A stretch of DNA of 64,000 nucleotides from positions 676,944 through 740,943 of the forward strand of contig CP066691.1 in NCBI GenBank assembly GCA_016432485.1. Reading direction: 5' to 3'. Within the stretch, counting starts at the first letter, position 1, and each line of letters opens with the position of its first letter. Below are positions 38,725 through 58,017 of the stretch, in pieces. Under the pieces are notes generated by a model that saw nothing but the letters and a program-made list of their open reading frames with translations, made no database searches and was not told the origin of the DNA. Position numbers and translations under genes: made by a program. Source of the DNA: Candidatus Niyogibacteria bacterium (GTDB lineage: Bacteria; Patescibacteriota; Minisyncoccia; HO2-45-28).

Positions 38725-39891
38725 ATGGATTTTGAACTGACTGCCGAGCAAAAAATGATTCAAGATATGGCGAAAGGTTTTGCCGTCACTCATTTCGCGC
38801 CCATTGTTGAAGAATATGAGGCGCAAGAAAAATGCCCCACACATCTTTTTCAGAAAACGGCCGATTGTGGATTTTTGGGCATAAATGTTCCCCAGAAGTT
38901 TGGTGGAATGGGCTTGGATTCCGTCTCTCAAATGCTTATTGTCAAGGAGTTGTCCAAGGTCTGGGCCGGGGGCACTTTGAGTTTGATCATTGTCCCGAAT
39001 TCCTTGGTAGCCTATTCTCTGGCAAAATACGGTACGGCCGAGCAAATTGAAAAATACCTGAAGCCGCTAATTAGGGGCGAGAAGCATGGGTGTTTTGGCT
39101 TGACCGAGCCGAATTATGGTTCGCATGCCTCGGGCGTGAAAACCAAAGCACACCCCCCCGACATAAGTGTGTTCGGAAGCGCATATAGAATAAATGGCGA
39201 GAAAACCTTTATTACCAATGTTACTTTTGCCGATTTTATCCTGGTTCTGGCACGAACCCATTTGGCAGACAAAGACCGGCCGGAATACGACGGTTTGACT
39301 GCTTTCATTGTAGATATAGGTGCGACTTGCGTTACCAAAGAGATAAAAAAAATAGGACTTCACTCCGCTCCTTTCGGTTCAATTCATTTTAAAGATACGT
39401 TTGTTTCGGAGGAAAATATTTTAAGCAAAGAAGGACGAGGTTTTAAAATTTTTATGGATACCCTGATTTCGGGTCGGATTTTTATTGCCGCCCAAGCGTG
39501 GGGAGTTGCTGAAGCCGCGTTTGAAGACGCGTTGGCCTATACCAAAGAGAGGAGGACTTTCGGAAAACTTTTGATTGACCATCAGGTGGTTAGCCACACT
39601 CTTGCCGATATGGCCATGGCGGTCAAAGAAGCCGAGTTCTGGACGCTTTACGCCGCTTCGCTTAAGGACTCCGGCGCGCCCGATTTTCGTAAATGGGCTT
39701 CGGCCGCGAAGACAAGGGCTACTGAAAGCGCGCTTTTTTGCGCCGATAAAAATGTTTTAATTCACGGCGGCATGGGTTACACCCGCGAAGCTCTTGCGGG
39801 ACGCCTTTGGCAGGAAGCTAAAGCATTTGAAATTTATGAGGGCGCAAATCCCATTCAAAAAGAAATTATTGCCAGAGAACTGAAAAAGTAA
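38725..39891 (+). CDS. acyl-CoA dehydrogenase family protein
   Basis: MDFELTAEQKMIQDMAKGFA... CFGLTEPNYGSHASG... typical ACAD N-/middle-domain motifs. Confidence 0.8.
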   Translation: MDFELTAEQKMIQDMAKGFAVTHFAPIVEEYEAQEKCPTHLFQKTADCGFLGINVPQKFGGMGLDSVSQMLIVKELSKVWAGGTLSLIIVPNSLVAYSLAKYGTAEQIEKYLKPLIRGEKHGCFGLTEPNYGSHASGVKTKAHPPDISVFGSAYRINGEKTFITNVTFADFILVLARTHLADKDRPEYDGLTAFIVDIGATCVTKEIKKIGLHSAPFGSIHFKDTFVSEENILSKEGRGFKIFMDTLISGRIFIAAQAWGVAEAAFEDALAYTKERRTFGKLLIDHQVVSHTLADMAMAVKEAEFWTLYAASLKDSGAPDFRKWASAAKTRATESALFCADKNVLIHGGMGYTREALAGRLWQEAKAFEIYEGANPIQKEIIARELKK

Positions 39892-39897
39892 AAAATG

Positions 39898-39929
39898 AAT
39901 ACGCAACGAGTGTTGCGTATTTTTATTTT
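39898..39929 (+). terminator. rho-independent terminator after acyl-CoA dehydrogenase
   Basis: AATACGCAAC-GAGT-GTTGCGTATT + TTTATTTT. Confidence 0.7.
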
Positions 39930-39949
39930 GGCGGGCGGCAAATTTTTTG

Positions 39950-39993
39950 AAAAATATAAAGAGAAAGGCACCGTCAACTGAATGAACGGTGCC
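39950..39993 (-). terminator. intrinsic terminator of minus-strand gene 40055-40543
   Basis: Minus strand AGGCACCGTTCATTCAGTTGACGGTGCCT + TTCTCTTTATATTTTT. Confidence 0.6.
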
Positions 39994-40054
39994 TGTGATG
40001 GACAGCACTCGAAGGTGACTATCCGGAAACCTTTAGAACGAACGCTTACTCCTC

Positions 40055-40543
40055 CTACATCCACACCGGCCCTCGAGTTCCCCACGTGTAGGGAAGCCCG
40101 ATGCCAGCGCAGCCGTACTCGCCGCGTCTCGCCTTTTTCCAAAGGACGAGCTGTGCGTGGCGGACCTTCTGGTCACACACCACGCACAGGCGAAGCTGCC
40201 TGATCCGATCGTTCTTCACGAACCGGATCAGCGCAACCTCGACATCGGCTTGCCGACCTGATGTCTCCACCAGATCGTCGGGACCGAGCGCCGGCGGCTC
40301 CTGCGGCACTTCCGCGTATCCGTACGCGTAGTATTCGCCGTTGTAGTAATCGAGCCGGAGCGTGAAGTCGCCGAAGTTGATCTTCGGACGATGCACCACA
40401 CTTTGCCGGTCCGACCAGATCCCGAAGAGGAAGAAGAGAATCGCTTCTCTCCACCTCGACTCGGGGAATTCCTGCGACGACAGACCGCTGACCTGGATGC
40501 CATTGCTGATGACACCCGCGAGACGCGCAACTAGCTGATTCAT
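40055..40543 (-). CDS. hypothetical 162-aa protein, GC-rich island gene
   Basis: Start MNQLVARLAG preceded by AGGAGG; consensus promoter 40708-40736; Tyr/Gly-rich centre DYYNGEYYAYGY and CVVCDQ...H segment; no recognised family. Confidence 0.5.
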   Translation of the reverse strand: MNQLVARLAGVISNGIQVSGLSSQEFPESRWREAILFFLFGIWSDRQSVVHRPKINFGDFTLRLDYYNGEYYAYGYAEVPQEPPALGPDDLVETSGRQADVEVALIRFVKNDRIRQLRLCVVCDQKVRHAQLVLWKKARRGEYGCAGIGLPYTWGTRGPVWM

Positions 40544-40707
40544 ACGAACCTCCTGGGAGGTACTCCGCAATACCACACTACTGAACCATTCAGCAGGTGA
40601 ATTGTGGAGGCAGCCGCATTTCTGCAGCAACAAGCGAGAAACTAAGGAATAATTTCCCATTTGTTGCCGCAAAAGCCAAAAATCAATGTGCTTAATTTAC
40701 TGTAATA

Positions 40708-40736
40708 AGTATAGCATATATAAACTCATATGTCAA
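40708..40736 (-). promoter_or_regulatory. consensus sigma70 promoter (TTGACA-17-TATACT) on minus strand with ~160-nt leader
   Basis: Minus strand TTGACATATGAGTTTATATATGCTATACT. Confidence 0.55.
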
Positions 40737-40904
40737 GCCAAAACAGAGCAATCAAAAAAAGCCCTTATTTCAGGCCATTTTCCACTTTTAAATTCTTATG
40801 GAAATTTTTCTTTGCATTGCCCTACGAAGCCTTGGTCCTACTCCGTAGCAGTCACTACTGCGAAGGACGCAGCGAAGTATGGGGCGGCAAATTCTTTGTT
40901 TTTT

Positions 40905-40950
40905 ACAATTTTAAAAATGAGAAACCCGCTACGCCCGAAGACGTAGCGGG
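40905..40950 (-). terminator. intrinsic terminator of gene 40979-41608 (minus)
   Basis: CCCGCTACG-TCTTCGGG-CGTAGCGGG + TTTCTCATTTTT on minus strand. Confidence 0.65.
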
Positions 40951-40978
40951 TGGGCAGTCTGCTTAGTTTTTGTTGCGA

Positions 40979-41608
40979 TCACCACCATGGCGGGCGTTCG
41001 AAGTCGCGAAGCGAGATGTTGTTCACGTTGATCCACGCATCGTAGCAGTCACCACCGTCGAGCTTGGCGGACAGCTCGGAGCCATCCTCAAACTTGATGT
41101 GGAGATTCTCGCCGACCACGTCAATCTCGGTGAGCTTCTTGCCAACGAATTCGCTCGTGAGCTTCGCGACGAACTGCTGTCGTGCCGCTTCGTGCGCTTC
41201 CGCCCTACGACGCTCTCGCTCTTCCTTCTCGCGCTGAGCCCGCGCCTCGTAATCCCTGCGGATCGTTTCCTTGAGCGTCGGGTTCGATACATAAAGCGCG
41301 ATTCCCACGGCAGGCACTTCACGCCAACCGCCGCCCTCGATCTTCTTGCGCTGTTGTTTCCGCATGAACGTATGGCGGATCTCGACAGTCCAAGGATCGG
41401 TAAGGGCGATGTTGTCGCTCGGAACCTCGAAACTCCGATCTCCGGATTCGATCTTCACCAGCTCTCCGAAGAGAGACGCTCCGACAACCTGAGGATTCGG
41501 CGAGAAGCCGAGCTCTCGCACCTGATGACCACCAGACACGACCCATCCTCCCTCGTTGAGCTTGTTGACAAGCTCTATCGGGGACAACGAAGTGCTGTGC
41601 CGGTTCAT
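40979..41608 (-). CDS. hypothetical 209-aa protein, GC-rich island gene
   Basis: Start MNRHSTSL after AGGAGG; Arg/Glu-rich coiled segment RDYEARAQREKEERERRRAEAHEAARQQ; no recognised family. Confidence 0.5.
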   Translation of the reverse strand: MNRHSTSLSPIELVNKLNEGGWVVSGGHQVRELGFSPNPQVVGASLFGELVKIESGDRSFEVPSDNIALTDPWTVEIRHTFMRKQQRKKIEGGGWREVPAVGIALYVSNPTLKETIRRDYEARAQREKEERERRRAEAHEAARQQFVAKLTSEFVGKKLTEIDVVGENLHIKFEDGSELSAKLDGGDCYDAWINVNNISLRDFERPPWW

Positions 41609-41675
41609 CGCGTTCACCTCCTAAGGTTTGATTTGTTCAAGGGAATGTAGATAATTCCACACTCCGACTGTTTAC

Positions 41676-41704
41676 AGTGTAGCAAGTATATATGACTTTG
41701 TCAA
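41676..41704 (-). promoter_or_regulatory. consensus sigma70 promoter (TTGACA-17-TACACT), minus strand
   Basis: Minus strand TTGACAAAGTCATATATACTTGCTACACT. Confidence 0.55.
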
Positions 41705-41766
41705 GCTCAGGTACAGTTAACCTTATGAGGTGACATTCTTGATGCGATAGGGTGACAAATTCTTTT

Positions 41767-42525
41767 TTAGATTTTATGAGCAACAATGACAACTCTATGG
41801 CGTTTCAACTCAATACCTTCTTGCGTTTTCATTTTTTCAACATACTCGGACAAAAATTTCCCGTCTTTAGTTGGGTCAAAATCCTTAAAAATAGGCACAC
41901 TTTCAAGCCAAAGGCTGAAATTATCAATATCCGAATAATATTCGGAGTAAAAAAATTCTTTTGCGAAAATCTCCTTAAAGCCAAGTGTTTCAAGCTCCGT
42001 CTTTTTCGATGCAAGGACGGATTTATCCCAGCCGCCAAAATTTTGGCCCCGACCAAAAACCTCCTTCAATTCCTTTGCGTCTTTCTCGCCGATACCAATT
42101 TCTATAAAACAACCACTCTTTTTCAAAACTCGATGAATTTCTTGATAAGGAGTTGGGCCTCTACGACTGTAAATCAAATCAAAATATTTGTCTTTAAATG
42201 GAAGTTTTTCTGCCTCGGCTTTTTGAAAAGTAACATTAGAAACTTTCTGTTCTTCTTGAAACTGCTTGGCCTTAGCGAGCATTTCAGAAGATATATCAAT
42301 TCCAAAAGTTTTATGAAATTTTTCTGCTATTTTAAGCGTAAATCTTCCGTCGGCACAACCAATATCAAGAGCGGTCTTATCTTTGTGGCCATACTTAATA
42401 AGTTGCTCAAGAAAAATTTCTTCTGGATTCCCATTGGGAAAATGGCTTTTGTGAATTGCTTCGGACTTATAGCCGCCGAATTTTTTAGCAACTTTATCAT
42501 AAAACTTTTGGTCAGGAATATTCAT
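41767..42525 (-). CDS. class I SAM-dependent methyltransferase
   Basis: Motif I ALDIGCADGRFT; AT-rich like host genome. Confidence 0.7.
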   Translation of the reverse strand: MNIPDQKFYDKVAKKFGGYKSEAIHKSHFPNGNPEEIFLEQLIKYGHKDKTALDIGCADGRFTLKIAEKFHKTFGIDISSEMLAKAKQFQEEQKVSNVTFQKAEAEKLPFKDKYFDLIYSRRGPTPYQEIHRVLKKSGCFIEIGIGEKDAKELKEVFGRGQNFGGWDKSVLASKKTELETLGFKEIFAKEFFYSEYYSDIDNFSLWLESVPIFKDFDPTKDGKFLSEYVEKMKTQEGIELKRHRVVIVAHKI

Positions 42526-42837
42526 AGGATTAAAAAATTTTCTTTTCTGCTTCTAACGAAATCGGGAATTTCTTTTTCCCCTAAAAGATTTGCTTCGCAA
42601 ATTTAACGGGGCACGTATTTTTCTCCGAATTCTTTTGCTGTTTTGGCATCCTGAAAGGAAGTGACAATTTCCCTCCTTCGCTTTCAGCTACGGACGGACA
42701 AGCAAGTTTTTTTTTGCTTTGCACTTCGTAGCTTCAGCGAAGGATGTGGCGGCATTCAATCCAAGAATTCGCGAAGCGAATACCTAAAGAATATAGGATT
42801 TTAAAAATGATGACAACAATGACAATCAGAAAAAAGA

Positions 42838-42870
42838 AACAGGCCGAACGCTCTTGCGAACGCTGGCCTG
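42838..42870 (-). terminator. intrinsic terminator of gene 42888-43379 (minus)
   Basis: ACAGGCC-loop-GGCCTGT then TTTCTTTTTTCT on minus strand. Confidence 0.6.
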
Positions 42871-42887
42871 TTGGTTGTGGTTATTCC

Positions 42888-43379
42888 TCACGGCAGTTCT
42901 CCGTTCAGGATTTCCTGCCACGAGTTCACCTGCTTGACGCGGCTGAGGAAGCGAGCGTATCGCCACACTTCATCGGGACGCGGCTGGAAGAGGTAGAGCG
43001 TGCTCACCGTAGCGAGGTTGCCCAAGACTTCCAATCGGTCGTCAACAAAGTGGGTAACGCCCAACTCCTCACAGATACCGGCCTTCTCGTGTCGCTCACG
43101 GCAGAAGCGAACGCGCTCGCGTCCGATTCCAGTGAGGTCATAGAAGCGGTGATGGTCGAGCCATTGCAGGGTTTTGTTCTGCACACGCTGACCGCACTTC
43201 GAGACAAGGAATACCTTGTCGCCGAACCGCTTCTCCACGAGCTGACGCAGAGCGTCGAAGACGCCCGGCACTGCCGTAGTCCGCAGGTAATTGTCAGTGA
43301 AGAACGAGGTATCGGTTCCGTCGTTCACTCGGTCGATGATGACGCCGCCGATATCGACGCCAAGCGTTTCTGCATTCAA
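42888..43379 (-). CDS. hypothetical 163-aa protein (degenerate HAD-like motifs), GC-rich, TTG start
   Basis: AGGAGG 8 nt before TTG; LGVDIGGVIID, VFLVSKCG, THFVDDRLEVL loosely resemble HAD motifs I/II/IV with non-canonical motif I. Confidence 0.45.
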   Translation of the reverse strand: MNAETLGVDIGGVIIDRVNDGTDTSFFTDNYLRTTAVPGVFDALRQLVEKRFGDKVFLVSKCGQRVQNKTLQWLDHHRFYDLTGIGRERVRFCRERHEKAGICEELGVTHFVDDRLEVLGNLATVSTLYLFQPRPDEVWRYARFLSRVKQVNSWQEILNGELP

Positions 43380-43436
43380 CGTTCTGCCCTCCTATCAAGG
43401 CACATTTTAACCTAAGCACTATGCCTAGATTTGAAA

Positions 43437-43465
43437 GCAATCATAGCATATCCAATCTAATACGT
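43437..43465 (-). promoter_or_regulatory. sigma70 promoter (TTGACG-17-TATGAT) minus strand, overlapping an 11-bp-stem hairpin
   Basis: Minus strand CAAGAAGCGGC-CAAAC-GCCGCTTCTTGACGTATTAGATTGGATATGCTATGAT. Confidence 0.5.
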
Positions 43466-43542
43466 CAAGAAGCGGCGTTTGGCCGCTTCTTGGAAAGAAT
43501 CACTAGGATTAAAAATTTTTCTTTTCTATTTTTCTTACGTGA

Positions 43543-43559
43543 TGCCGCGGGTGGGAGTT
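43543..43559. repeat. 17-bp direct repeat of tRNA-Leu 3' end (TGCCGCGGGTGGGAGTT) 82 bp beyond the tRNA
   Basis: Matches 43645-43661; intervening DNA forms nested hairpin GTGGGAGTT...GGGCTGCC-TAAA-GGCAGCCC...AACTCCCAC. Confidence 0.6.
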
Positions 43560-43642
43560 CTTTTGACTCGCTTTGCTCGTCTGCAAGCCTGGGCTGCCTA
43601 AAGGCAGCCCTTCAACTCCCACCAATAATTATTTTAAATTCT

Positions 43643-43730
43643 TGGTGCCGCGGGTGGGAGTTGAACCCACATGACCTTGCGGTCGCAGGATTTTGAGTCC
43701 TGTGCGTCTGCCAGTTCCGCCACCGCGGCA
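43643..43730 (-). tRNA. tRNA-Leu (anticodon CAA), CCA encoded
   Basis: Minus strand TGCCGCGGTGGCGGAACTGGCAGACGCACAGGACTCAAAATCCTG + long variable arm + GGGTTCAACTCCCACCCGCGGCACCA. Confidence 0.8.
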
Positions 43731-43802
43731 TAAACTTCTACGATAAATCTATACATTTATCCACCCATTGTCAAAAAAAACTGATTTGCTAACCTATAAA
43801 TA

Positions 43803-51923: not shown

Positions 51924-51960
51924 GGCCTTGTCATGACCACTTGACAAGGCCGTTTTTTTT
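51924..51960 (+). terminator. rho-independent terminator overlapping next promoter
   Basis: GGCCTTGTCA-TGACCAC-TTGACAAGGCC + TTTTTTTT. Confidence 0.7.
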
Positions 51961-51968
51961 GATATAAT
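51941..51968 (+). promoter_or_regulatory. consensus sigma70 promoter (TTGACA-16-TATAAT) embedded in terminator, ~165-nt leader
   Basis: TTGACA is the 3' arm of the terminator stem; TATAAT at 51963-51968. Confidence 0.6.
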
Positions 51969-52139
51969 AGAGAGAGTAAAATGCCACTGTTCAATGTGAA
52001 TGGGTTGGCACAAGGTCTTTGTCAACTTTTCAGATAAGGAGAAAAGACACATAGGACACCTGTTTTTGGCGTTTTTTTCGTAACACAGGCGAAAGGGGCA
52101 TTGAGCCCAAAGCAACATATCTCCAAGGAGGAGAGGAAC

Positions 52140-53588
52140 GTGGCAAAGCCCAAGAGTGAGCACAGAACAGCGGAAGAGGGAAGCCTCGGCACCCTCGGCG
52201 ATTTGGCGGTGGGTGGCCTCGTCGTCAGAGGCAAGGCCGCCAAGAAACCGTCGGATGACGACGGCTTCGGCATCCCCGATCTCACCGGCATCAAGCCGGC
52301 GGAGGAGTTGGAGGACGAGCGCTTGCGCGCCGAAAGGAGGGAGGAGAAGACAGCCTCCTTCCTCGAGGCCGTGCCGTCGGCAGTCAAGATGCTTCTCGAG
52401 CGGATTCGCTCCAAGGCGGGAGCCGAGGAGGCCCGGCAGATTCTGCAGGAGAGGATCCTGGACGTTCAGGACCCCGAACTGCGGGGTCGCGCTCGCTGGC
52501 TCTACGCCCGTGAGTTCGTGGCCCGCGCCGTGGAAAACGGCGGGTCGCCCAACATGTTCGAGGTTCTCAATCACCTCGGCATGAAGGATGATGGCCTCAA
52601 ACTCGTCGGGGAGCCCGAGGGGAACAAGGTCGTCACCATCCGGGTGCAGGTCGGGAAGAAGTTCTTTGTCCCGGCCCACATTCCGACCGGCATGGAGCCG
52701 GTGGTGAAGGAAGCGTTCCAGCTTCTTCACCAGCTTTCCGGCGTCACCAAGGAAAAGCAGTACGATGAGCGAAAGGCTGCTCTCGAGGCGTTCACCAAGG
52801 ACGTCTCGCGCGAGTGGGACGACCTCCTCTCCGGCCAGCCCGGGACCTACGTCTTCTACGTGCCCGACGAAAAGGGCACAAGGAAGACGGACACCGGCGA
52901 ACGCGTGCCATGGACTTACTTCGGAGGCCACCTCAAGGTGGTTTCTGACGGTGGAACCTTCGTGGCCGTGGGGGCTCTCGGCGCCTTTGAGAGGTCGAGA
53001 ATCCTGGCCGAAGCCATCGCCTGGCAGGTGGCCGTTATCGTTCCCTCCGTTCAGAAGGGGTTCGAGAGGGATGCGGAGGGCAGAGGGCCAAGGATCTCGC
53101 CCGAGCGCCTGCCCAAAGATCAGTTCAAAGCGGCCATCCATCTTCACAGCCTGATGAACCGCGCCTTCGTCCTTCACGAGGCCAACATGGCCAAGAAGGC
53201 CGAGGCCGACAAGGCCAAGGCCGAGGCGACGGTGGAGCACGAAGCCTTCCTGCTGGATGGCGCCGACGGCGTGGCTTTCGTCAAGCACCTCCGCTTCAAC
53301 GATGTGCCCCATCCGTGGGCGCTCGTGGAGCGCAAGGCCGGCGAGATCCGGGTCGTGGAAGCCCACCCTGCGGAAGATTTCTTCCCGCCTGAGAGCTTCG
53401 GGTTCATGCCGGAGGGCGAGGATTTCGCGGGTCTGGATAAGACCCTGCGCAACTTCTTGCGCTACGCCAGAACCAAGGCCGAGCGGGCCAAGGAGAAGGG
53501 CAAGGGCTTCGACTCCGGAAACGCCACGGAGGAGGAGATGAAGGCGTACGCCGAAGATTTGGGAGTTCCCACCGACGGACGCTCCTGA
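52140..53588 (+). CDS. hypothetical 482-aa protein, strongly GC-rich (~63%) foreign gene, GTG start
   Basis: AGGAGGAGAGGAAC then GTG; codon usage unlike rest of window; Lys/Ala/Glu-rich C-terminal coiled segment; no recognised family. Confidence 0.55.
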   Translation: MAKPKSEHRTAEEGSLGTLGDLAVGGLVVRGKAAKKPSDDDGFGIPDLTGIKPAEELEDERLRAERREEKTASFLEAVPSAVKMLLERIRSKAGAEEARQILQERILDVQDPELRGRARWLYAREFVARAVENGGSPNMFEVLNHLGMKDDGLKLVGEPEGNKVVTIRVQVGKKFFVPAHIPTGMEPVVKEAFQLLHQLSGVTKEKQYDERKAALEAFTKDVSREWDDLLSGQPGTYVFYVPDEKGTRKTDTGERVPWTYFGGHLKVVSDGGTFVAVGALGAFERSRILAEAIAWQVAVIVPSVQKGFERDAEGRGPRISPERLPKDQFKAAIHLHSLMNRAFVLHEANMAKKAEADKAKAEATVEHEAFLLDGADGVAFVKHLRFNDVPHPWALVERKAGEIRVVEAHPAEDFFPPESFGFMPEGEDFAGLDKTLRNFLRYARTKAERAKEKGKGFDSGNATEEEMKAYAEDLGVPTDGRS

Positions 53589-53633
53589 CGAAGCCGGAGG
53601 ACCGGCGACACAGGACTGACGTCAATAACACCT

Positions 53634-53690: not shown

Positions 53691-54509
53691 ATGGAAATTC
53701 ATCCGCAAAACAGGGGAAAGGCTAAAAAGATTTTTGATCTGGTTCTTTCAGAAGCCGGAGAGGGAAATAGGTGGGATAATGAGGAACCGGGAGTAATTGA
53801 TTTTATTTCCAAAAAGAGCGGTCTGAAATTGGGCCGCGAAGTGATAGGCAAACTTCTTTCAGAAGTTTGTGATGCGGGTTATCTGGAAAAGATTCTTGGC
53901 GGAAGGACGGGCCGAAAAATTGTTAGCCTGCGGATCCTCCGCCGCGAATGGCAAGAGAAAAGCGCTCAAAGGCCGCCACAGAAAAATAAAGAGACGGCCG
54001 CGATAACACCGGCGCCGAAGACGGCGGCAGATCGGAAAAAACCCGAAAAGCCAAGGCTGGTTTTGCTTGTTGATTTCGTCAATATAGAAACTACTTTGAT
54101 GAGCGCGTCTAAAGCCGTTGACGCAATAGTCGGCTTGGAAGGACCTCTGGTGAACATTGGCACGATTGAAGCCAAATTCAGTTTTATACCGTCCCATCGA
54201 TTAGATGGCGCGCTGGTCCTCTCACTCATTTATCGTCATCTATTGATTGTCTGTCCCAGAAATCTGCATAACGGAGTCGATAAGACTAAGGATAAAGACC
54301 TGGTTGACGCGAGAATGAGCAATTTGGTTAATATCATCGCTCTTTTTAACGATGACATATCGCACATTGTCTTTGTTTCAGGAGATGGAGATTTTCTCGA
54401 CGCAGCCTGTTATGCCAAAGACCACGGCAAGAAAGTGGTCGTGGCCGCTCCGATGGGACATCTTTCAAGGGCGCTTGAAAAAGTGGCCGACGAAATTATC
54501 TTTTTCTAG
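53691..54509 (+). CDS. NYN/LabA-like (PIN-fold) domain protein with N-terminal winged-helix-like region
   Basis: C-terminal LVLLVDFVNIE...VFVSGDGDFLDAACYAKDHGKKVVVAA matches NYN/LabA signature (SGDGDF). Confidence 0.6.
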   Translation: MEIHPQNRGKAKKIFDLVLSEAGEGNRWDNEEPGVIDFISKKSGLKLGREVIGKLLSEVCDAGYLEKILGGRTGRKIVSLRILRREWQEKSAQRPPQKNKETAAITPAPKTAADRKKPEKPRLVLLVDFVNIETTLMSASKAVDAIVGLEGPLVNIGTIEAKFSFIPSHRLDGALVLSLIYRHLLIVCPRNLHNGVDKTKDKDLVDARMSNLVNIIALFNDDISHIVFVSGDGDFLDAACYAKDHGKKVVVAAPMGHLSRALEKVADEIIFF

Positions 54510-57747: not shown

Positions 57748-57816
57748 ACTAATTATAAAATTATAATCACTTTTTGATTCTTCGCGCAAAGCGAAGAATT
57801 TTTTTTGTCGAGATTT

Positions 57817-57888
57817 TGGGCACACCAGGACTCGAACCTGGAACCACCAAGGTATAAGCTTGGCGCTCTGCCATTGAGCTATGTGCCC
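57817..57888 (-). tRNA. tRNA with anticodon UAU (AUA-reading tRNA-Ile)
   Basis: Minus strand GGGCACATAGCTCAATGGCAGAGCG-CCAAG-CTTATAC-CTTGG-TGGTT-CCAGGTTCGAGTCCTGG-TGTGCCCA; cloverleaf fits, loop CU-UAU-AC. Confidence 0.7.
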
Positions 57889-58017
57889 ATCGCGATGAAG
57901 TCAAGGCGGGCGCATCATATTTTATATTATCGTTTCCTTGACTAATTTACAAGCCAATATATGCTGAAAATGGGTTGAAATTTGAAATAAAACATCCGTT
58001 TTAAGGAGGAGGCAACG

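Follow-up and report, generated by a model that had tools for sequence, protein, structure and literature searches.

How do genes whose base composition differs from that of their surroundings come to lie in a reduced bacterial chromosome, each with its own promoter and terminator, and how is their expression controlled? The question is raised by two adjacent genes, here called A (40055-40543, minus strand, 162 aa) and B (40979-41608, minus strand, 209 aa), in the closed 836,981-bp chromosome of a Candidatus Niyogibacteria bacterium (Patescibacteria, or candidate phyla radiation, CPR). Coordinates refer to the 64-kb stretch of that chromosome that was analysed as a whole, hereafter the window; the proteins of genes A and B are entries HYY55_04025 and HYY55_04030 of the Niyogibacteria genome. 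A preliminary description made from the sequence of the window had given the coordinates, strand and sizes of both genes correctly, and its figure of about 60% GC holds for each (60.5% for A, 58.4% for B). The present analysis adds that gene A is framed by conserved RNA structures, that the window contains further GC-rich cassettes, and that there is a linkage to tRNA genes. The clearest new result is the structured mRNA of gene A. Taken together, we favour, at a rough probability of 55%, the reading that A and B are single-gene accessory cassettes at tRNA-proximal sites, similar to the morons of phages, with A under post-transcriptional control that is probably autogenous.

The structured mRNA of gene A

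The 165-nt leader of gene A is better conserved than the A protein itself. For comparison, homologues of A were collected from about 45 loci and homologues of B from 9 (the loci are designated by L numbers where they need to be told apart). The elements of the A transcription unit in the window are the following, in the order of transcription.

40708..40736, minus strand: gene A promoter, TTGACA-17-TATACT with a TG-extended -10 box, 11/12 consensus match
40619..40674, minus strand: leader hairpin HP1, 23 bp, found in 16/26 leaders
40559..40613, minus strand: core leader hairpin HP2 (aligned part 40563-40609; the covariance model scores 69.7 bits here)
40541..40561, minus strand: anti-Shine-Dalgarno/Shine-Dalgarno (anti-SD/SD) hairpin, ACCUCC-CA-GGAGGU, with SD and start codon
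40055..40543, minus strand: gene A, 162 aa, predicted mildly basic alpha/beta protein of a Patescibacteria-only family
40000..40033, minus strand: hairpin/pseudoknot of the 3' untranslated region (UTR), AAGGU with the loop ACCUU of hairpin GGAUAGU..GCUGUCC
39950..39993, minus strand: gene A intrinsic terminator, GGCACCGT..ACGGTGCC plus T-rich tail (as RNA, GGCACCGU..ACGGUGCC plus U-rich tail)

The central element, HP2, was aligned as a 45-nt hairpin from 24 loci. In this alignment 94.9% of the cells are paired, as opposed to 33-51% when the partner strand is slid, and compensatory changes are found in 13 of the 19 pairs, with the observed values reached by none of 500 shuffles. At the centre of the hairpin, UUCAC and GUGGUA are invariant and pair with each other, one of the pairs being U-G, and around them lie variable, covarying stems; two single-nucleotide bulges are present, both on the 3' strand. 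A covariance model built on HP2 returned 31 hits in 363 kb of sequence (the window plus the collected loci), and all 31 lie directly upstream of an A homologue. Each locus with a hit has one site and never a second, and there is none elsewhere in the window. The upstream hairpin HP1, which is present in the minimum-energy fold, shows compensatory changes in 12 of its 23 pairs and contains many G-U pairs. G-U pairs make the structures strand-specific, which suggests RNA rather than DNA elements.

The SD sequence is paired in about two thirds of 26 leaders, with a CCUCC element 3' of HP2 pairing with GGAGG, and this pairing covaries between leaders (AUCCU/AGGAU, GUCCU/AGGAC). The approximately 15 leaders in which the 3' strand of HP2 is GGAG-like are the same leaders that possess the anti-SD hairpin, and the 7 that have no GGAG-like strand have no such hairpin. 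In the remaining clade the ribosome-binding site lies 2-6 nt from HP2, with no extra hairpin, while across all A leaders this distance ranges from 2 to 25 nt. The fold of the whole leader (-66 kcal/mol, z -5.8) consists of exactly HP1, HP2 and the anti-SD elements, with a closing helix that reaches the start codon.

At the other end of the gene, a pseudoknot is formed between AGGU, after the stop codon, and ACCU in the loop of a conserved hairpin (GGACAGC..GCUGUCC). The stem of this hairpin is 100% paired, with compensatory changes in 6 of 7 pairs; the pseudoknot helix is 84% paired, with compensatory changes in 2 of 5 pairs and the variants AGGU/ACCU, GGGU/ACCC and UGGU/ACCA. The 3' UTR of A folds with a z of -4.0, and the terminator is next after the pseudoknot. 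In most A homologues the stop codon abuts AGGU, whereas in the window copy AAGGU is found about 20 nt past a premature stop. Gene A here ends at TAG (40057-40055), 8-9 codons ahead of its closest homologues (tail ..TREEYERSF); the lost tail can still be read out of frame at 40033-40057 on the minus strand, ahead of the 3' pseudoknot, leaving the C-terminus slightly truncated.

Conserved, strand-specific RNA structures exclusive to gene A are thus found both at its ribosome-binding site and near its stop codon. Over positions 39800-43800, neither the A leader nor the 3' UTR matches an Rfam 15 family at the gathering score, or at an E value of up to 10, and on the strength of the comparative alignments the two are a candidate for a new cis-regulatory RNA outside that collection. 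An RNA element common to the A and B leaders was considered on account of a shared GUGUGG likeness, and was rejected: the covariance model gave no hit at B, and B leaders, in which hairpins recur, show little conservation of sequence.

Proposed control of gene A

With a conserved, structured site that lies at the ribosome-binding site and is exclusive to one gene, the A leader has what is expected of an operator, and HP2 is a putative translational operator for gene A. In the mechanism proposed here, a factor would bind the invariant UUCAC/GUGGUA core and stabilise HP2, leaving CCUCC free to lock away the ribosome-binding site. Were the base of HP2 to open, its GGAG strand would capture CCUCC and the ribosome-binding site would be released. 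For the clade that has no CCUCC element, the bound factor might cover the ribosome-binding site directly. Should the factor be protein A, a very strong promoter would be countered by negative feedback. The 3' hairpin and pseudoknot may stabilise the 3' end of the mRNA or serve as a second binding site.

That the ligand of HP2 is a protein, and most simply A itself acting in negative feedback, is put forward tentatively, with roughly one chance in three of being correct. A protein ligand is favoured because the invariant nucleotides of HP2 are nearly all paired, with only two bulges, and because the motif goes with one protein family only, and that a mildly basic one. The arrangement is comparable to known autogenous operators, namely ribosomal-protein leaders such as those of L20 and S15 and the coat-protein hairpins of phages MS2 and PP7. 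In these, as in the A leader, a bulged and conserved hairpin lies at or overlaps the ribosome-binding site of the regulated gene, the site is exclusive to that gene, and the stems covary around an invariant recognition core. Unlike them, A has no known RNA-binding fold and no Rfam match, and its mRNA combines two leader hairpins with a separate anti-SD helix and a 3' pseudoknot. A search of the PDB with the predicted fold of A returned no known RNA-binding fold; binding of RNA by A is hypothetical, and the HP2 core might equally be recognised by a different protein or by a small ligand.

If the ligand were a metabolite or ion, or if the leader acted as an RNA thermometer, the function of gene A would be to act upon that signal or to respond to it. 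Riboswitches are usually laid out in the way seen in the A leader, with a conserved core around which variable stems covary and a platform that sequesters the SD. The leader also shares with such platforms a three-part arrangement in which the purine-rich strand of the aptamer stem and the SD could compete for one CCUCC. There is also a hint of a stress context, in that B and the sister cassette C described below lie near dnaJ/dnaK or groES-groEL in L028 and L071. Unlike riboswitch platforms, however, the A leader has no evident ligand pocket, and the nearly complete Watson-Crick or G-U pairing of the invariant HP2 nucleotides, with two bulges, leaves little room for one. Moreover, riboswitches usually control several gene families, whereas HP2 is tied to one (31 of 31 hits), and no Rfam family is matched. 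As for a thermometer, the five-G-C anti-SD helix is stiffer than known examples such as the ROSE and fourU elements. Signal sensing of this kind is accordingly judged unlikely.

Two protein families restricted to Patescibacteria

The open reading frames (ORFs) of A and B are real genes. The alternative that the GC-rich stretches encode structured non-coding RNAs, with ORFs arising as chance products of high GC, draws on the fact that RNA genes of AT-rich genomes typically appear as GC-rich islands with promoter and terminator, on the several overlapping ORFs in other frames, and on one other island of the window (27790-28340) that does look non-coding. Yet both genes differ from their homologues mainly at third codon positions, where changes are about twice as frequent as at first or second positions, and both families (144 clusters for A, 136 representative clusters for B) show invariant columns and conserved lengths. 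A strong SD lies at the right distance from each start, and AlphaFold confidence for the two proteins is 87-89 (predicted local distance difference test, pLDDT, of 88.6 for A, with a predicted template modelling score, pTM, of 0.83, and a pLDDT of 87.2 for B). The non-coding explanation can be given practically no credence.

Among 5.8 billion proteins, the named homologues of A and B come exclusively from Patescibacteria, including Giovannoni-, Magasanik-, Komeili-, Kerfeld-, Vogel- and Levybacteria, WWE3, Paceibacteria and bins labelled "Saccharibacteria". The preliminary description had recognised no family for either protein, and this stands: A, B and also C have no significant match in Pfam, PHROGs, PADLOC or NCBIfam. 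Sequence profiles compared with the PDB gave no match for A, and noise only for B and C. The structure prediction that the preliminary description had called for yielded confident AlphaFold models for A and B, neither of which matches a fold in the PDB, and that of A also matches no BFVD viral model. Judged by these models, A and B are two new, phylum-restricted protein families with no detectable relatives among solved structures.

A is predicted to be a mildly basic alpha/beta protein (family median isoelectric point 8.9). Two features had been singled out in it, a Tyr/Gly-rich core and a CVVC motif. The first is conserved throughout the family as GEYYAYG; CVVC lies in a variable stretch, and a metal-binding or redox role for it was rejected, the motif not being conserved. 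The highly charged helix noted in B is borne out by the AlphaFold model, in which an N-terminal beta domain is followed by a single charged helix of 45 residues (residues 110-154) and a small C-terminal beta domain. Weak matches of B to MctB and MFAP1 are caused by this low-complexity helix and were discarded.

The C-terminal domain of B scores 16.2 bits (E 0.015) against Pfam DUF7448, below the curated cut-off of 27 bits, and P0175, a stand-alone relative, scores 17.4 bits against the same cut-off, a lead only. In P0219, a metagenomic protein of 357 aa, an RNA-ligase-like domain (PF09414, under the curated cut-off at E 3.6e-5) is followed by a B-family N-domain. The sole indication that B may act on nucleic acids is this fusion, in a distant relative.

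Promoters and terminators

The two sigma70 promoters proposed in the preliminary description, TTGACA-17-TATACT (40736-40708) for A and TTGACA-17-TACACT (41704-41676) for B, are borne out, both with a TG-extended -10 box, and they are among the five best matches (at least 10/12) in a 10-kb promoter scan. A third of these five, at 43468-43440, drives another GC-rich gene that was absent from the earlier list. In other genomes, a near-consensus promoter is present at all 9 B-family loci examined and in most A loci for which upstream sequence was read. An AGGAGG sequence precedes each gene as described, and the reported spacing of 7-8 nt to the start codon is correct for B (8 nt), whereas that of A is only 5 nt. 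GC-rich intrinsic terminator hairpins are likewise found at both genes. That of B has a 12-bp stem and a T run (40951-40924); that of A was missed by a simple scan, yet it is conserved among homologues.

Wherever the flanks of A or B homologues were read, each gene has its own promoter and terminator, and the unit that is conserved starts with the -35 box and ends a little beyond the terminator. The arrangement is therefore one of separate promoter-leader-gene-terminator units, as had been proposed, and not an operon. This bears on the suggestion that A and B are a functional two-gene system, such as a toxin/immunity, anti-phage defence or host-interaction pair, acquired as one block. The genes are indeed adjacent, co-oriented, similar in GC and both unannotated, and one B homologue (L066) adjoins a Gp49/HTH (helix-turn-helix) toxin-antitoxin pair. 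However, outside the window A and B are not found together or adjacent in any of the approximately 45 A loci or 9 B loci, their families differ in size and distribution, neither has a PADLOC match, and promoter and terminator are separate for each. The two-gene reading, which is highly improbable, is rejected. The neighbourhood of the L066 gene (465-1978) is of a typical accessory or mobile kind, with the B-family gene directly past the Gp49-like toxin and HTH antitoxin genes and a tRNA-Arg.

Base composition

The GC content of gene A is 0.605 and that of gene B 0.584, compared with 0.458 for the window, 0.464 for the flanking acyl-CoA dehydrogenase gene, 0.361 for the methyltransferase gene and 0.40-0.43 for the spacers between genes. 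Most of the excess is at third codon positions, where GC (GC3) is 0.71-0.76 for A and 0.72 for B, against a mean of about 0.46 for the other ORFs of the window and 0.53-0.55 for the few immediate neighbours; amino-acid composition is therefore no explanation for it. The offset is not peculiar to this genome. In each of the 24 A loci compared, the A homologue has a GC3 above the neighbours' mean (by 0.22 on average), and in 20 of them it is above that of every neighbour; B homologues exceed their neighbours in 5 of 5. Within the window, five protein-coding islands share a codon usage that is distinct from that of host genes, with C/(C+T) of 0.76 versus 0.39 and G/(G+A) of 0.78 versus 0.36. Codon bias linked to expression is an unlikely cause, given that chaperonin genes are unshifted (GroEL and GroES in L028 are not GC3-elevated) and that G-ending and C-ending codons are both enriched.

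Donation of A and B by a higher-GC host organism outside the Patescibacteria was another proposal of the preliminary description. In its favour, both genes clearly exceed the genome average in GC and GC3, and two related loci (L014, itself 60% GC, and L020) come from metagenome bins labelled Gammaproteobacteria, labels that derive from automated binning of short contigs and are unverified. Against such a donor, every named homologue among the 5.8 billion proteins is from Patescibacteria, within which promoter, leader RNA and terminator are conserved, and the GC offset occurs in all hosts, from 30% to 67% GC3, and partly tracks host GC. Host donation is not supported, and we consider it very unlikely.

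Probable movement of the cassettes and linkage to tRNA genes

Genes A and B are the last members of a co-oriented minus-strand run of about 3.8 kb that begins at a tRNA-Leu gene and passes through a repeat of the tRNA 3' end, a further GC-rich unit (cassette C) and a methyltransferase gene. Apart from the A unit listed above, its features are the following.

43643..43729, minus strand: tRNA-Leu(CAA), head of the run of C, methyltransferase, B and A
43540..43560, minus strand: direct repeat of the tRNA-Leu 3' end, 83 nt past the tRNA (repeat family D11)
42764..43473, minus strand: sister cassette C, with promoter TTGACG-17-TATGAT, a 163-aa GC-rich gene (42888-43379), terminator and trailing sequence
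41750..41762, minus strand: junction motif copy 1 (GAATTTGTCACCC), directly past the methyltransferase stop and ahead of cassette B (repeat family D8)
41676..41704, minus strand: gene B promoter, TTGACA-17-TACACT with a TG-extended -10 box, 10/12 consensus match
41642..41665, minus strand: gene B leader hairpin (GGAGUGUGGAAU..ACAUUCC), 10 bp, z -1.8, a weak element
41617..41622, minus strand: gene B SD, AGGAGG, 8 nt ahead of ATG
40979..41608, minus strand: gene B, 209 aa, Patescibacteria-only family
40913..40951, minus strand: gene B intrinsic terminator (ACCCGCUACGUCUUCGGGCGUAGCGGGU plus U run), sequence kept across the family
40882..40894, minus strand: junction motif copy 2 (GAATTTGCCGCCC)
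40810..40890, minus strand: imperfect palindromic spacer (TTGCCGCCCC..GGGCAAUGCAAAG), repeat family D17, fold z only -1.8
40737..40789, minus strand: shared upstream module (AAAAGTGGAAAATGGCCTGAAATAAGGGCTTTTTTTG..), directly ahead of the A promoter, with a weak terminator-like hairpin (site 40776-40760)
39933..39945, minus strand: junction motif copy 3 (AAATTTGCCGCCC), between the A terminator and that of the convergent acyl-CoA dehydrogenase gene

Cassette C provides evidence of movement. It is 92% identical over 713 bp of DNA to a copy in L028 (95% at the amino-acid level, with 17 synonymous versus 7 non-synonymous codon changes), and the homology begins exactly at the -35 hexamer in three genomes. 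These three copies follow three different tRNA genes, for Leu in the window, Lys in L028 and Arg in L071; the last is the third context found for the protein, which belongs to a 19-member cluster at 90%. The B homologue in L028 is 51% identical in protein and 75% in DNA, and nothing else there matches the window at the DNA level. More generally, homology to other genomes starts at the -35 box and stops shortly after the terminator, and the flanking sequences cannot be aligned. Sequence comparison thus shows cassette C to have moved recently between genomes, and horizontal circulation of A and B is likely.

The association with tRNA genes extends beyond C. A tRNA gene also immediately precedes B at three loci (L004, L025, L067) and A at two (L011, L043). 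In two of the three genomes with C, the 3' end of the tRNA is repeated 60-85 nt downstream, over 21 nt in the window and 41 nt in L028 (tRNA-Lys). Unrelated cassettes also have sequences in common at their edges. For instance, the upstream module of about 50 nt lies ahead of A in the window, L037, L032 and L054, and ahead of C and B in L028. At the downstream edge, the pattern AATTTGCC[GA]C has 8 sites in 445 kb, 6 of which lie 20-30 nt past A or B terminators, in five genomes, and in the window three copies of the AATTTGCCGCC junction motif bracket cassettes B and A. The palindromic spacer at 40810-40890 has a shorter relative past cassette C (42715-42760, minus strand); both open with TGCCGCC(M)CAT(M)CTTCGCTG and form imperfect hairpins. 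Because the same position in L028 and L071 reads simply TGCCGCCAAAG, the window spacers resemble short palindromes that were inserted into the junction sequence. In the surroundings of C in L028 (3234-7562, with B) and L071 (2261-7072), the proximity of dnaJ/dnaK or groES-groEL reflects either a stress context or coincidence in tRNA-rich regions.

On this evidence, units such as A, B and C would pass from one member of the Patescibacteria to another and collect behind tRNA genes. Their entry could be due to an integrase whose action is now erased, or to tRNA-anchored recombination in naturally competent bacteria, natural competence of Patescibacteria being a plausible route (PMC11665869).

Several observations weigh against circulation. 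The ORFs screened between 36 and 46 kb, namely the cassette genes and their immediate flanks, include no integrase, transposase or phage gene, and families A and B, like C, are absent from IMG/VR. The tRNA repeats lie on the near side of the cassettes and do not bracket them, with no distal copy within 4 kb. No relative with an empty site was retrieved: the 8 further B-carrying contigs that could be checked for presence or absence of the block, all from one sample series, have the same arrangement. In L004, B is found in a partly syntenic TopoI-DprA-tRNA neighbourhood, with an identity (50%) close to that of TopoI (53%), and B may be a long-term resident at the window locus. Finally, GC3 of A homologues correlates with that of the host (r 0.66, slope 0.54), from which it follows that the offset is at least partly kept over long residence and is no simple mark of recent import. 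A test for horizontal gene transfer against core genes was possible for the only two loci that share core genes with the window, and cassette identity is not above core identity in either. The argument for transfer consequently rests on cassette C, composition and context. As for a phage origin, it was rejected on the absence of A, B and C from IMG/VR, and four viral matches to the DNA pattern of the leader hairpin have neither hairpin nor gene and are due to chance.

The same observations could be accommodated if A and B are ordinary chromosomal genes, vertically inherited and very highly expressed, in which selection for strong, stable expression maintains promoters, UTR structure and GC-rich codons; the varying neighbourhoods would then be due to a gene order that is scrambled in Patescibacteria generally. 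Gene GC3 that tracks host GC3, a B gene as diverged as TopoI in a shared neighbourhood, a 45% identical A in a genome whose FtsH is 61% identical, the lack of mobility genes, and near-perfect promoters and ribosome-binding sites are all consistent with this. It does not readily explain the sporadic distribution (15 loci among GTDB species representatives in a pattern-limited scan), nor near-identical C cassettes in otherwise unmatched contexts after three different tRNAs, nor an upstream module and junction motif common to unrelated cassettes. High expression is also at odds with the absence of a GC3 shift in GroEL, GroES and L32, with a shift in L19 far smaller than in B, and with the similar shift of purine- and pyrimidine-ending codons, which is as expected for a compositional difference. 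Long-term residence of this kind is possible, though we lean away from it.

The preliminary description had viewed A and B as independently mobilised cassettes. Separate units, the GC3 offset and a C cassette that is 92% identical in an otherwise unmatched genome favour that view, qualified by the possible long residence of B. It had also held that widespread core proteins of similar GC in related genomes would speak against it; the families are in fact widespread across classes of Patescibacteria, but they are sporadic, and GC-richer than the host everywhere.

Comparison with known mobile units

The favoured reading, that of moron-like cassettes, is named for the extra single genes of phage genomes, which have their own promoter and factor-independent terminator, a distinct composition, horizontal spread and independent expression (PMC3594210). 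The A and B units resemble them in promoter, terminator and a base composition unlike that of the flanking genes. Unlike phage morons, they lie outside any recognisable prophage, with acyl-CoA dehydrogenase, methyltransferase, ParB and tRNA-Leu genes in the flanks and no PHROG hits, and together with C they form co-oriented runs past tRNA genes with a common upstream module and junction motif.

Genomic islands and islets linked to tRNA genes lie next to a tRNA whose 3' end recurs as a direct repeat; they carry accessory cargo, are mosaic in structure and have an atypical GC content (PMC2704930). The run past tRNA-Leu is similar, and adjacency to a tRNA recurs in L004, L011, L025, L028, L043, L067 and L071. 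It differs from such islands in being only about 3.8 kb long, with no integrase, in tRNA repeats that do not flank the cargo, and in the occurrence of the same cassette after three tRNAs.

In the case of integrons, the likeness consists of co-oriented, tandem single-gene cassettes and short, repeated, partly palindromic junction sequences. Unlike an integron array, the run has no IntI integrase and no common Pc promoter, each cassette having its own promoter and terminator, and AATTTGCCGCC lacks the R and L boxes of attC. With neither integrase nor attC pattern, an integron was rejected. A more far-reaching reading is that of an undescribed trade of ready-to-express cassettes in integron-like arrays that need no integrase, with A as a self-regulating RNA-protein module in which a protein with a novel fold would bind a novel operator hairpin and the 3' pseudoknot of its own message. 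Here a common 5' insulator-promoter module and the AATTTGCCGCC junction would define the unit, and cassettes would be inserted serially past tRNA genes, for instance when transformed DNA undergoes tRNA-anchored recombination. This must be considered doubtful.

Other GC-rich islands and neighbouring genes

In addition to A and B, at least four more GC-rich islands of the same build are present in the 64 kb. Besides cassette C, they include the following.

28440-29035, minus strand: cassette D, a 132-aa GC-rich gene (ORF 28530-28928) in a promoter-to-terminator unit, no Pfam match, codon usage GC-shifted as in A, B and C
51940-53590, plus strand: cassette F (ORF 52101-53588), 495 aa, promoter TTGACA-16-TATAAT, leader of about 130 nt, no Pfam match
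27790-28340, minus strand: candidate non-coding island, promoter TTGACA-17-TATAAT with TG, about 500 nt of 60% GC, strong terminator

The composition of cassette F is the most extreme in the window (GC 0.63, GC3 0.82); it is preceded by two unannotated ORFs and followed by a gene for an NYN-domain protein (53691-54509). The island at 27790-28340 contains no credible ORF, and its folding energy is -260.7 kcal/mol (z -7.1). It matches no Rfam family, either at the gathering score or at an E value of up to 10, and is a candidate for a large structured non-coding RNA.

The class-I S-adenosylmethionine (SAM) methyltransferase gene between C and B (41767-42525, minus strand) is AT-rich, with 36% GC against 45.8%, and the run from tRNA-Leu to the acyl-CoA dehydrogenase gene is accordingly a mosaic of high-GC and low-GC pieces. 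A methyltransferase 30% identical to this one adjoins the A homologue in L057. Elsewhere in the window, ARAGORN predicts a tRNA-Ile with anticodon UAU (57816-57889, minus strand); in most bacteria AUA is decoded instead by a lysidine-modified CAU tRNA.

Implications

Patescibacteria have tiny genomes with a large unannotated share, and their regulation and gene exchange are almost uncharted. The RNA elements of gene A could be among the first candidate cis-regulatory RNAs specific to this group. Genetic tools for Patescibacteria are under development and are still without inducible expression (PMC11665869), and the compact, portable A leader could be tried as a control part in such tools. The GC3 offset found in every host means that a GC anomaly of the kind seen here cannot simply be read as recent import. 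Promoter-to-terminator units beside tRNA genes, for their part, provide a testable picture of how episymbionts with reduced genomes may gain accessory genes.

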